64,000 nucleotides of DNA from Escherichia coli (GCF_003334385.1 NZ_QOWN01000007.1), one strand, 5' to 3'. Shown: positions 32,577 through 43,401, counted from the first letter of the stretch. Notes: generated by a model not told the origin, from the sequence alone. Numbers and translations: made by a program.

Positions 32577-33587
32577 TTAATCATAACCCTTTGGATTTTT
32601 GAGTTGCCAAAGCCAAGCATGCTTCAACATGTCCTCAAGATTATATTTTGCGCTCCAACTTAATTCAGCTCTAATCAATGATGGATCGGCCCAGCATTCA
32701 GGCACATCACCCTTTCGTCGTTTGGAGATACGATAAGGAACAGAGACATTATTAACTCGCTCAAATGTATTTACTATCTCTAATACAGATGAACCAACAC
32801 CCGTACCTAAATTATAAATATGTAGACCATTTGTTTTTTTATTATTCAATGCAGCTATATGTCCTTCAGCTAAATCGCAAACATGAATAAAATCTCTGAT
32901 TCCAGTTCCATCAGGCGTACTATAATCATCGCCATAAATGGTCAAATACGGCAAATCCCCAATTGCGACTTTAGTCACGTAAGGTACTAGATTATTAGGA
33001 ACTCCTAGAGGATCCTCTCCAATCTCTCCTGAAGGGTGGGCACCAATAGGGTTAAAATATCTAAGAATAGTTATATTCCAATCGCCATCAGATTGAATTA
33101 AATCCATCAAAATTTGTTCGACCATATGCTTACTGGTCCCGTAAGGATTTGTAGTTCCTCCAGTTACACATTTTTCAGTTAATGGCATATTATCTGGCAG
33201 TCCATATACAGTCGCAGAAGAACTAAATATAATATCCTTTATCCCATTTATACACATTAACTGCAATAAGTTTAACGTTCCAACTACATTGTTGTGATAA
33301 TATGTTAAAGGTGCCCTACTAGATTCTGAAACTGATTTCAATCCAGCAAAATGAATAACCTTATTAATATCATGTTTAGAAAAAATTTCTTGCAGAGATT
33401 CAGCATTACAAATATCATAATCATAAAATACAAATTCTCCACCGCTCAGCGCTTTTATTCTGTCAATCACACTTGCTTTAGAGTTTGAAAAATTATCAAC
33501 AACTATGACGTTATATTTTAACTCAATCAATCGAATTAAAGTATGAGAACCTATATATCCTAAGCCACCAGTAACTAATATGTTCAT
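32577..33587 (-). CDS. gne: UDP-sugar 4-epimerase (GalE/Gne family)
   Basis: 336 aa, TGGxGYIG and YGTSK motifs; AT-rich; position at gnd-proximal end of O-antigen cluster. Confidence 0.8.
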   Translation of the reverse strand: MNILVTGGLGYIGSHTLIRLIELKYNVIVVDNFSNSKASVIDRIKALSGGEFVFYDYDICNAESLQEIFSKHDINKVIHFAGLKSVSESSRAPLTYYHNNVVGTLNLLQLMCINGIKDIIFSSSATVYGLPDNMPLTEKCVTGGTTNPYGTSKHMVEQILMDLIQSDGDWNITILRYFNPIGAHPSGEIGEDPLGVPNNLVPYVTKVAIGDLPYLTIYGDDYSTPDGTGIRDFIHVCDLAEGHIAALNNKKTNGLHIYNLGTGVGSSVLEIVNTFERVNNVSVPYRISKRRKGDVPECWADPSLIRAELSWSAKYNLEDMLKHAWLWQLKNPKGYD

Positions 33588-33605
33588 GTTGTTTCCTTTA
33601 CAATG

Positions 33606-34727
33606 TCAAATGACATTAAATAATTTTCTTTTAAAAAGAATACATAACCAAGTAAAGGTAAAAAAGTAAGGAATTGCAGTTGTTCCGAGTGACATTGATG
33701 CTATCAAAAATGGAAGCACGATGACAATAGCATCCTCTTTGAGGTAAATGCACATAATGCATAATAATACTAAAAATAAAAATAATCCAATCATGCCAGT
33801 TTCAATTAAGAAAGTCAGAAACAGATTATGTGCCCCCATACCAATAACATCGACTGCATTTCCAAGACCAACCCCCAGCAATATCACCTCAACATTATTA
33901 TTCTTAATGTATTCGAGTGAATACCTAATTAAATCAAATTTACTTTCAAAGCTTATATCATCCGTGAATTTTTTAAATACAAACCATGAAAGAACAATAA
34001 GTAATACTGGCATAAGCATATATGAGAAAGCTTTGATGCGCTTATTTTTCATTAGAACAGAAAGCACAAAAAGCAATATCATTGCTATGATAGCAGCCCT
34101 AGAGAAAGTTAAAACAACCCCAACAAATAAAGCACAAAAAACAAGAAAGTATCTTACGCGCAATAAACCAACAATTTTAATATCTCTGAAGAAATAAAGA
34201 AAACAGGATAATATAAAAACAGCTTCTAGACCAACAAAGTTGGAATCGGCATACATAAGTGAGTTTACTTTATATATTTGAAAGCCGATACCCAGTTCTT
34301 CTAACTTATCAACATTTGCAAGATACGGATGTTGAATTCTCCAAAAACCATCAAGAATGAAAACGAATGAATAAAACAAGAAAACATTCAATAAATTTCT
34401 TTTTGTAATGCTTCGTCCCTTATAATAAAAATCCACCAACATTGGAGAAAGCAGCACCATACACAGATTAATTACAAGTGAAAAATGCGAGTTTATAAAA
34501 AGGAAAGTTGACAATAGTGATATAATAAGACTTATGAGTGTGAAAAAAGAAACATCCCATTTCCTGCAACTAACATTTGTAAGAAAAACCAAAATCATTG
34601 AAAGAATAAAAATAAAATAAACAGGACTAATCGCAGTTATTTGGGTTATATATAAACCACAAGATATCAACCATAAAAGGCCGATAAATGAGATTTTTTT
34701 ATCAGCATTATTATTTTCAAGTTTCAT
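33606..34727 (-). CDS. wzy: Putative O-antigen polymerase Wzy
   Basis: 373 aa, highly hydrophobic, about 10 predicted TM segments, very AT-rich, no conserved enzymatic motif. Confidence 0.6.
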   Translation of the reverse strand: MKLENNNADKKISFIGLLWLISCGLYITQITAISPVYFIFILSMILVFLTNVSCRKWDVSFFTLISLIISLLSTFLFINSHFSLVINLCMVLLSPMLVDFYYKGRSITKRNLLNVFLFYSFVFILDGFWRIQHPYLANVDKLEELGIGFQIYKVNSLMYADSNFVGLEAVFILSCFLYFFRDIKIVGLLRVRYFLVFCALFVGVVLTFSRAAIIAMILLFVLSVLMKNKRIKAFSYMLMPVLLIVLSWFVFKKFTDDISFESKFDLIRYSLEYIKNNNVEVILLGVGLGNAVDVIGMGAHNLFLTFLIETGMIGLFLFLVLLCIMCIYLKEDAIVIVLPFLIASMSLGTTAIPYFFTFTWLCILFKRKLFNVI

Positions 34728-41359: not shown

Positions 41360-41416
41360 TTCATCATTCCTTTTAATTCATCTTGCTCCATCATCACGAA
41401 CAAGATGCAAAAACTA

Positions 41417-42316
41417 TTAAATTGCTGTAGTCGTAAACAATTCGTTGAGCATTCGTTTCACGCCAACCTGCCAGTCAGGCAAGACAAGCGCAAAGTTCTG
41501 CTGAAATTTTTCTGTATTAAGGCGAGAGTTATGTGGACGACGAGCTGGTGTAGGATAGGCTGATGTTGGTACTGCGTTGAGCTTGTTGAGCGCAAGGGGA
41601 ATGCCTGCTTTGCGCGCCTCTTCAAAAACAAGCGCAGCATAATCGTGCCAGGTTGTGGTACCACTGGCTACCAAATGGTACAAACCTGCGACTTCTAGCT
41701 TATTCAATGCCACACGAATGGCATGCGCCGTACAATCAGCCAGCAGCTCAGCACCTGTTGGTGCACCAAACTGATCGTTAATAACCGCTAATTCTTCACG
41801 CTCTTTTGCCAGACGTAACATCGTTTTGGCGAAGTTATTTCCTTTACCTGCATAGACCCAGCTGGTCCGGAAAATAAGGTGCTTCGCACAATGCTCTTGT
41901 AATGCTTTTTCTCCAGCTAACTTGGTTACACCGTAAACATTTAGCGGTGCGGTTGCATCCGTCTCCAGCCATGGCGTGTCGCCATTTCCAGGGAATACGT
42001 AGTCAGTTGAGTAATGAATTACCCAAGCCCCAACTTCATTAGCCGCTTTTGCAATTGATTCAACGCTAGTCGCATTGAGTAATTGTGCAAATTCGGGTTC
42101 TGACTCAGCCTTATCTACTGCGGTGTGAGCCGCAGCATTAACAATAACATCAGGGCGAATTTTTTTGACGGTTTCAGCCACACCTTCAGGATTACTAAAA
42201 TCACCACAATAATCAGTGGAGTGAACATCAAGAGCAATCAAATTACCCAAAGGTGCCAGAGCACGCTGTAGTTCCCAACCTACCTGCCCTGTTTTGCCGA
42301 AAAGGAGAATATTCAT
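41417..42316 (-). CDS. rmlD: dTDP-4-dehydrorhamnose reductase RmlD
   Basis: 299 aa. Confidence 0.9.
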   Translation of the reverse strand: MNILLFGKTGQVGWELQRALAPLGNLIALDVHSTDYCGDFSNPEGVAETVKKIRPDVIVNAAAHTAVDKAESEPEFAQLLNATSVESIAKAANEVGAWVIHYSTDYVFPGNGDTPWLETDATAPLNVYGVTKLAGEKALQEHCAKHLIFRTSWVYAGKGNNFAKTMLRLAKEREELAVINDQFGAPTGAELLADCTAHAIRVALNKLEVAGLYHLVASGTTTWHDYAALVFEEARKAGIPLALNKLNAVPTSAYPTPARRPHNSRLNTEKFQQNFALVLPDWQVGVKRMLNELFTTTAI

Positions 42317-43401
42317 TACTGGCGGCCCTCATAGTTCTGTTCAATCCACGATTGATAGGCACCACTTTTCACATTCTCGACCCATTTTGCATTAGCCAGG
42401 TACCATTCCACCGTTTTACGAATCCCACTCTCAAACGTTTCCTGCGGTTTCCAGCCCAATTCGCGGCTAATCTTCTCTGCATCAATCGCATAACGGCGAT
42501 CGTGTCCCGGGCGATCGGCAACATAAGTAATTTGCTCGCGGTAAGATTTCTCTTTCGGTACAATCTCATCCAACAAATCACAAATAGTGAGCACTACATC
42601 GATGTTTTTCTTTTCGTTGTGTCCACCAATGTTATAAGTTTCACCCGCTTTACCTTCAGTAACGACTGTATATAACGCTCGAGCATGATCCTCGACATAC
42701 AACCAATCGCGAATTTGATCCCCTTTACCATAAATAGGTAATGCTTTACCTTCCAGAGCATTCAGAATAACCAATGGAATCAATTTTTCCGGGAAATGAT
42801 AAGGACCATAATTGTTAGAGCAGTTAGTCACAATGGTCGGTAAACCATAGGTTCGTTTCCACGCGCGGACTAAATGATCGCTTGATGCTTTCGAAGCAGA
42901 ATATGGGCTACTTGGTGCGTAAGCTGTTGTCTCAGTAAATAAGGGTAATTCTTCTTTATTATTTACTTCGTCAGGATGAGGCAGATCGCCATAAACTTCG
43001 TCAGTAGAAATATGATGAAAACGGAAGCTATTTTTCTTGTCGCCATCAAGAGCAGACCAGTAATTGCGAGCCGCTTCCAAAAGGACATAAGTACCAACAA
43101 TATTGGTTTCAATAAATGCCGCAGGGCCTGTAATTGAACGATCCACATGGCTTTCAGCAGCCAAGTGCATCACTGCATCCGGCTGATGCTGAGCAAAAAT
43201 CCGTGCCATTGCAGCAGCATCGCAAATATCCGCATGTTCAAAAACATAGCGTTCAGAGTCAGAAACATCAGCAAGTGATTCCAGGTTTCCGGCGTACGTT
43301 AATTTATCGACATTAACAACACTATCCTGAGTATTATTTATAATGTGACGAACTACAGCAGAACCAATAAATCCTGCGCCACCAGTAACAAGTATTTTCA
43401 C
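42316..43401 (-). CDS. rmlB: dTDP-glucose 4,6-dehydratase RmlB
   Basis: 361 aa, TGGAGFIGS and YSASK motifs. Confidence 0.95.

Follow-up and report, generated by a model that had tools for sequence, protein, structure and literature searches.

Which O antigen is specified by the genes between the JUMPstart element and gnd in a 64,000-nucleotide stretch of Escherichia coli DNA (GCF_003334385.1, NZ_QOWN01000007.1)? The original prediction for this stretch (hereafter the window, meaning its whole length, with positions counted from its first letter) had recognized an O-antigen gene cluster at 32577-43401, had left its serogroup unassigned and had proposed a comparison of wzx and wzy with O-serogroup sequences. 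When this comparison is made, both genes match O48. We read the cluster, with a probability of roughly 0.95, as the catalogued E. coli O48 (Og48) O-antigen gene cluster, acting by the biosynthetic route proposed below. Three independent lines of sequence evidence give O48, namely the genomes matched by megablast, the exact lookup of proteins and the Og48 primers, and there is no counter-evidence to the assignment itself. The cluster is already known, and only the serogroup name was missing from the original prediction; the surveys of Iguchi and colleagues in 2015 and of DebRoy and colleagues in 2016 are said to have sequenced it.

The whole region was run by megablast against 5,426 complete E. 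coli genomes. Four of these, VE-T2, VE-T10, A17 and 1500, each aligned without a gap over 100% of the query, as a single piece with 99.7-99.9% identity, and RefSeq names the wzx and wzy products of these genomes 'O48 family'. The annotated gene order is identical to that of the window in the three genomes inspected (VE-T2, A17 and 1500), and the cluster proteins are all 99.5-100% identical to those of the best match, VE-T2. Because NCBIfam has no hidden Markov model for the Wzx or Wzy of O48 (0 families) and the RefSeq 'O48 family' names come from another type of rule, exact lookup and in-silico polymerase chain reaction (PCR) served to test identity. The two genes concerned are:

35992-37215, minus strand: wzx, O48 O-unit flippase, 407 amino acids, ATG at 37215; RefSeq 'O48 family O-antigen flippase', Pfam PF13440, 10 hydrophobic segments.
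33606-34727, minus strand: wzy, O48 O-antigen polymerase, 373 amino acids; exact match to UniProt A0A0A8J6M8, Pfam PF04932.

The sequence lookup returned the window Wzy as an exact match to A0A0A8J6M8 and to the 'O48 family O-antigen polymerase'. The window Wzx is identical at 406 of its 407 positions to BAQ00973.1/AIG62382.1, which are dedicated O-antigen flippase deposits; the single difference from BAQ00973.1 is A95 for T. For the third line we used the Og48-specific wzy primers of Iguchi 2015, for which the supplement of PMC7403468 gives a product size of 793 bp. In the window they have perfect 20/20 sites at 34442-34461 (minus strand) and 33669-33688 (plus strand), giving a product of 793 bp (33669-34461), with no second Og48 primer site in the window.

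The same comparisons decide whether the window holds true O48 or a related variant that has the same gene order and would make a related but distinct O antigen. Such an O48-like cluster is present in three complete genomes (2017.17.01CC, JNEC-KY203 and 18KM2445), where its genes follow the order of the window and 99% of the query aligns at 88% nucleotide identity, and it is probably the type 'OgN48va' (Iguchi et al. 2020), a name that our literature search returned from one paper, as an item in a list. The existence of this type name and of these genomes would favour the variant, yet the window Wzx and Wzy are 78% and 77% identical to those of the variant as against 100% to those of the O48 genome VE-T2, and the window is without an extra gene of 341 amino acids that the variant carries. 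Moreover, even when up to 5 mismatches are allowed, the O48-like relative offers no site for the Og48 forward primer, whereas both primers match the window perfectly. That the window carries the variant rather than O48 seems to us scarcely credible.

Two side observations concern the same gene pair. An 'O48 family' flippase and polymerase are also recorded in Escherichia albertii and fall into the 90% clusters that contain the window Wzx and Wzy, so that the O48-type wzx/wzy pair is common to both species. A mechanically called wzx ORF (open reading frame) at 35992-37305 starts at a TTG 90 bases 5' of the ATG and overlaps the preceding GT2 glycosyltransferase gene by 125 bases; this longer form is used neither in RefSeq nor in the matching deposits, which support the 407-residue ATG form, and it was rejected.

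What, then, does an O48 cluster of this kind contain? Eleven ORFs, all on the minus strand, fill 32577-43401, the rmlB start being 43401 and the gne stop 32577, in the order rmlB, rmlD, rmlA, rmlC, GT2, GT4, GT2, wzx, GT4, wzy, gne. None of the 11 has an internal stop, and all are intact. Adjacent genes either overlap, by 1-35 bases, or have no more than 57 bases between them, apart from a single gap of 209 bases. The ORF limits coincide exactly with the 11-kb block between JUMPstart and gnd that had been predicted, and the content is as predicted too: rmlBDAC, four glycosyltransferases (two each of the GT2 and GT4 families), wzx, wzy and an epimerase of the GalE family. The exceptional gap and the genes that bound or accompany the locus are:

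35783-35991, minus strand: non-coding gap of 209 bp between wzx and the second GT4 gene.
43774-44667, minus strand: galF, upstream boundary gene of the O-antigen locus; TIGR01105, 689 bits against a cut-off of 659, and annotation.
31066-32472, minus strand: gnd, downstream boundary gene; ORF, and annotation of the identical VE-T2 gene.
29651-30817, minus strand: ugd, UDP-glucose (UDP, uridine diphosphate) 6-dehydrogenase; annotation of the identical VE-T2 gene.
26506-27483, minus strand: wzzB, O-antigen chain-length regulator; NF012015, 604.8 bits against a cut-off of 267.

The description of the whole 11 kb as strongly AT-rich holds in part. The serotype-specific 7.3 kb (32577-39919) has a GC content of 0.308, whereas rmlBDAC is intermediate at 0.432 and the his and colanic-acid flanks are at 0.53-0.55; outside 26-44 kb, every 7.3-kb stretch has a GC content of at least 0.487.

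At the 5' end of the cluster stand the four genes for dTDP-L-rhamnose (dTDP, deoxythymidine diphosphate), and at its 3' end the epimerase gene:

42316-43401, minus strand: rmlB (rfbB), dTDP-glucose 4,6-dehydratase, 361 amino acids, GTG start; NCBIfam NF007490, 797.8 bits against a cut-off of 649; 100% amino-acid identity to VE-T2 RfbB.
41417-42316, minus strand: rmlD (rfbD), dTDP-4-dehydrorhamnose reductase, 299 amino acids; NF007440, 651.2 bits against 308.
40484-41359, minus strand: rmlA (rfbA), glucose-1-phosphate thymidylyltransferase, 291 amino acids; NF012024, 672 bits against 588.
39916-40476, minus strand: rmlC (rfbC), dTDP-4-dehydrorhamnose 3,5-epimerase, 186 amino acids; TIGR01221, 273.9 bits against 155.75.
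32577-33587, minus strand: gne (annotated galE), GalE-family 4-epimerase, 336 amino acids; TIGR01179, 428 bits against 262.

The dTDP-L-rhamnose pathway is complete, with all four Rml enzymes above the curated NCBIfam equivalog cut-offs; L-rhamnose in the O unit, as predicted from the rml genes, is thereby implied. The epimerase is only 52% identical to K-12 GalE, and in the alignment it has a Cys at the gatekeeper position of GalE, Tyr299. This Cys aligns with the Cys of human GALE (Cys307), which is the best match of the window protein in the PDB, and the Y299C mutant of E. coli GalE (1lrk) outscores the wild type. According to the structural work of Thoden and colleagues on E. coli GalE and human GALE, the residue at the Tyr299 position reportedly decides whether N-acetylated substrates fit. 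The GalE-like cluster epimerase thus fits Gne, a predicted UDP-N-acetylglucosamine (UDP-GlcNAc)/UDP-N-acetylgalactosamine (UDP-GalNAc) 4-epimerase, and the RefSeq label 'galE' understates its probable function.

The serotype-specific part of the cluster also encodes four glycosyltransferases:

39005-39919, minus strand: glycosyltransferase GT2, 304 amino acids, inverting fold; GT2 N-domain matches (for example, NF053739, E 1.6e-42), all below equivalog cut-offs; the identical WP_069915478.1 is GT2 in RefSeq.
37960-39003, minus strand: glycosyltransferase GT4, 347 amino acids, TTG start, retaining fold; PglJ GalNAc-transferase model, E 8e-20, below cut-off; RefSeq WP_069915477.1 is GT4.
37181-37963, minus strand: glycosyltransferase GT2, 260 amino acids; Pfam PF13632, E 4.5e-5; TIGR01556 rhamnosyltransferase subfamily, E 2.4e-7, below cut-off.
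34724-35782, minus strand: glycosyltransferase GT4, 352 amino acids, retaining fold; GT4 C-domain matches, E 1e-9 to 2.5e-14, below cut-offs; RefSeq WP_069915475.1 is GT4.

As a general rule, the anomeric configuration of the donor is inverted by GT2 enzymes but kept by GT4 enzymes. Because inversion of dTDP-beta-L-rhamnose would give alpha-L-rhamnose, both GT2 enzymes are likely alpha-L-rhamnosyltransferases. The 260-residue GT2 shares 47% identity with the last GT2 encoded in the O139 cluster, which is rich in rhamnose, and this fits the suggested role. By the same reasoning from fold and mechanism, the two GT4 enzymes are likely an alpha-D-GalNAc transferase and a transferase for alpha-D-galacturonic acid (GalA), in either order.

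Export and polymerization would follow the Wzx/Wzy-dependent pathway, as the original prediction had it. Wzx matches Pfam PF13440 (Polysacc_synt_3; E 3.5e-5 over residues 30-311) and Wzy matches PF04932 (Wzy_C; E 1.1e-11), each with about 10 hydrophobic segments. No ABC transporter (wzm/wzt) was found among the 11 accounted-for ORFs of the cluster, and WzzB is encoded nearby.

How far does this gene content agree with what is recorded for O48? According to the review of Liu et al. (PMC7685785), the O48 unit contains exactly one residue each of D-GlcNAc and D-GalNAc; its cluster includes gne, from which GlcNAc is deduced to be the initial sugar. Since the gne product serves GalNAc, the prediction of 'GalNAc or Gal' stands for GalNAc, to which the Cys gatekeeper also points, while its alternative of Gal is superfluous. 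In Wzx/Wzy clusters the transferase genes normally number one fewer than the residues of the unit, with exceptions listed in the same review. O48 is not on that list, so its four transferases imply a five-residue unit, in line with the estimate of about five sugars from four transferases plus WecA. Taken together with the complete rml set, the review gives no indication that O48 is a serogroup without rhamnose or with another number of sugars.

The predicted list of sugars had a gap, however: GalA, likely part of the O48 unit, was missed, and the gene that would supply it lies outside the block between JUMPstart and gnd. In PMC11989651, published reference data for D-GalA are credited to the paper on the O48:H21 structure, which supports GalA indirectly. 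Literature searches for an O48 structure with Rhap/GalpNAc residues returned no match, nor is O48 listed in the BMC Genomics supplement. The O48 structure of MacLean, Webb and Perry from 2006 is reported to be a pentasaccharide of L-rhamnose, D-GalA, D-GalNAc and D-GlcNAc. The candidate for the missing supply gene, located between ugd and wzzB on the opposite strand, and the insertion sequence next to it are:

27909-28913, plus strand: probable gla, predicted UDP-glucuronate 4-epimerase, 334 amino acids, annotated 'NAD-dependent epimerase'; PDB 5u4q, E 2.9e-190.
29037-29628, minus strand: IS200C copy inserted where the 3' ends of gla and ugd converge; tnpA at 29037-29495, leader RNA (Rfam STnc490) at 29505-29628.

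The standard route to UDP-GalA runs through Ugd and then Gla (PMC5560731); our literature search for an E. coli gla next to ugd returned only a Proteus paper on this general route. The gene is present in 293 of the 5,426 complete genomes (5.4%). Its neighbourhood was sampled in 11 of the 293, comprising O48 (three, VE-T2, A17 and 1500), O48-like (two), O113, O139, O159 (three) and one other cluster bearing an ATP-grasp amidoligase gene, and in each of these gla adjoins ugd. The O units of O113, O139 and O159 presumably contain GalA.

It could be argued that the repeat unit has no GalA, the epimerase beside ugd being unrelated to O48, either as a hitch-hiker that serves another polymer or as a dehydratase. 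The candidate is below every curated family cut-off, and its best PDB match, 5u4q at about 86% identity, is deposited as 'dTDP-glucose 4,6-dehydratase'; yet the next relatives in the PDB, the 6zl6/6zla group (E 6e-44), whose entries bear only the name 'epimerase domain-containing protein', are what we take to be the Bacillus cereus UDP-glucuronate 4-epimerase. Physical linkage alone could account for co-inheritance with the cluster, but a gene found in so small a share of genomes stands beside all the O48 and O48-like clusters examined, as well as beside those of O113, O139 and O159. Likewise, the statement that UDP-GalA genes lie 'elsewhere in the chromosome' (PMC7685785) has to be set against the citation of the O48 structure paper as a source of D-GalA data, and against the ATP-grasp ligase-type genes, of the kind that amidates uronic acids, in one sampled neighbour cluster and in the O48-like relative. 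On balance we consider a unit without GalA improbable, and the gene at 27909-28913 is quite probably gla, supplying the GalA of the O48 unit. The RefSeq label 'NAD-dependent epimerase' would then understate its function.

A separate observation concerns the sampled O159 genomes. The 'O159 family' wzy is annotated as frameshifted in three of three (L005 3138-4152, L006 4046-5060 and L008 4568-5582), which could mean a genuine frameshift common to all three, a slippage site or a fault in the reference protein.

The IS200C copy bears on whether the cluster works at all. A cluster that is O48 by sequence could be silent or defective, such that the strain would be rough or O-non-typeable, through a regulatory defect, a polar effect of IS200C or a defect in wecA, waaL or rfaH; the IS200C copy does lie between ugd and gla, and the genes needed elsewhere lie outside the window. 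However, the element sits between the 3' ends of convergent genes, in no gene or promoter, and the same insertion recurs in each of the three inspected O48 genomes, which come from three continents (Vietnam, Mexico and Norway). Being common to these genomes, the insertion is read as an old feature that the O48 block tolerates. The 11 genes are all intact, their products are identical or nearly so to those of VE-T2, and the JUMPstart element is intact as well, which together make a silent cluster very unlikely. The insertion is absent from the O48-like relatives, so it serves as a marker of the O48 block.

The signals for transcription are found between galF and rmlB:

43477-43515, minus strand: JUMPstart element with ops motif, an RfaH-dependent antitermination site 5' of rmlB; Rfam RF01707, 60 bits (gathering score 35), E 8e-12.

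The ops motif itself, GGCGGTAG, is at 43481-43488, 76 nt 5' of the rmlB start. A terminator scan found a single terminator-like site where chance alone would give 6.2, a result compatible with one long operon; a promoter scan gave 52 sites against 49 expected, a chance level that is uninformative on internal promoters. A second exact match to the ops-containing pattern, GGCGGTAGCGT, occurs at 2839-2849 (plus strand). It was set aside as a second RfaH site and is probably due to chance, the region being annotated with pdu genes, yeeA and dacD, and two matches being obtained in 3 of 100 shuffles.

From these parts a route of biosynthesis can be proposed for the O48 cluster. Transcription would begin upstream of the JUMPstart/ops region as one operon, and RfaH recruited at ops would keep it running through the long AT-rich operon. 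RmlA, RmlB, RmlC and RmlD would make dTDP-L-rhamnose, and Gne would turn UDP-GlcNAc into UDP-GalNAc. Ugd would make UDP-glucuronic acid (UDP-GlcA) from UDP-glucose, from which the probable Gla would then give UDP-GalA. WecA, encoded elsewhere (in the enterobacterial common antigen, or ECA, locus), would load GlcNAc-phosphate onto undecaprenyl phosphate. The four transferases would add four further sugars to give a five-sugar unit, the GT2 pair adding alpha-L-rhamnose and the GT4 pair alpha-D-GalNAc and alpha-D-GalA. Wzx would flip the unit across the inner membrane, Wzy would polymerize it and WzzB would set the chain length.

Several points weigh against this route, as distinct from the serogroup. 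None of the four transferases reaches a curated equivalog cut-off, their donors and acceptors being assigned from the mechanism of the glycosyltransferase family, and the Gla candidate likewise reaches no NCBIfam cut-off, with a dehydratase name on its closest structure. The presence of GalA in O48 draws on one indirect citation, and the GalA content of O113, O139 and O159 is presumed. Expression and serological reactivity are predictions from the DNA.

Is the O48 cluster inherited on its own or with its neighbours? Compared with VE-T2, the window has 0 mismatches over 27134-27972 (the end of that compared stretch) and 10 over 28577-47401 (18.8 kb), whereas to the left of 27133, inside wzzB, there are 11-19 mismatches per 500 bases, or about 3% divergence. 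Compared with A17 and 1500, near-identity is limited to about 28000-42000, from gla to rmlD. The edges look like recombination junctions: one against VE-T2, at about 27133 in wzzB, and two against A17 and 1500, close to gla (about 28000) and to rmlD (about 42000). Exchange of O antigens between strains by recombination is a well-known pattern, and blocks of near-identity in differing backgrounds imply that the O48 genes, gnd, ugd, IS200C and gla move as one block.

The chromosomal background provides some further observations. The first 12,000 positions of the window (1-12000) hold pduP, pduQ and other propanediol-utilisation genes, followed by yeeA and dacD, and are 99.9% identical to porcine enterotoxigenic E. 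coli (ETEC) and giant-panda isolates, not to the O48 genomes. At the corresponding place VE-T2 has a lambdoid prophage next to sbcB.

The extra gene of the O48-like relatives raises a wider question about the limits of the unit. It encodes 341 amino acids between wzx and the second GT4 gene (minus strand, 7178-8203 in L002 and 9678-10703 in L013); the corresponding part of the window (35796-35950) is an unrelated non-coding segment of about 155 bp. Its product has weak similarity to ATP-grasp proteins and L-amino-acid ligases (Pfam, E 4.7e-5; PDB 3vot, E 0.017). Compared with the annotated ATP-grasp amidoligase of strain ECO8855, it showed no significant similarity (E 0.1), so the two are not orthologues and the ATP-grasp reading rests on weak matches. 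The gene could amidate a uronic acid in the variant O antigen. We tentatively suggest, as a possibility that falls short of our expectation, that the working O48 unit exceeds galF-gnd, with gla beyond ugd supplying UDP-GalA and the block gla-IS200C-ugd-gnd-O48 being passed on together, and that the nearest relative differs from O48 mainly by its added ATP-grasp ligase gene, whose product would amidate GalA with an amino acid, giving an uncharacterised structure that would be derived from O48, or from which O48 would be derived by gene loss.

For annotation, the source strain is typable as O48 (Og48), with little significance beyond this. O48 is rare, at four of the 5,426 complete genomes, and the serogroup includes Shiga-toxin-producing isolates. 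A practical consequence may come from the limits of the locus: the galF-gnd definition omits the probable gla that O48 seemingly needs, which matters when the cluster is moved into glycoconjugate hosts.

Among known systems, the catalogued O48 cluster has the same gene content and order as the window, and nothing of substance differs. The O48-like variant shares the gla neighbour, with 87-96% nucleotide identity in the rml genes and 87-94% protein identity in the first three transferases, whereas Wzx, the second GT4 and Wzy fall to 77-79%. The O139 and O113 clusters are also of the Wzx/Wzy type, and beyond gnd they too have ugd and gla side by side. Like the window, O139 has rmlBDAC, two GT2 and two GT4 genes, including the related GT2 described above, and O113 has a terminal gne-like gene that is 56% identical; in both, however, Wzx and Wzy are unrelated to those of the window at the BLAST level, and gene order and serogroup differ. 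The K-12 (O16) rfb cluster occupies the same chromosomal site, with JUMPstart, rmlBDAC at the 5' end and a Wzx/Wzy pathway, but its transferases, wzx and wzy differ, and it has neither gne nor a gla beside ugd. The window cluster for its part has no glf, wbbH-L or IS5, and the original prediction was right to set it apart from that of K-12.

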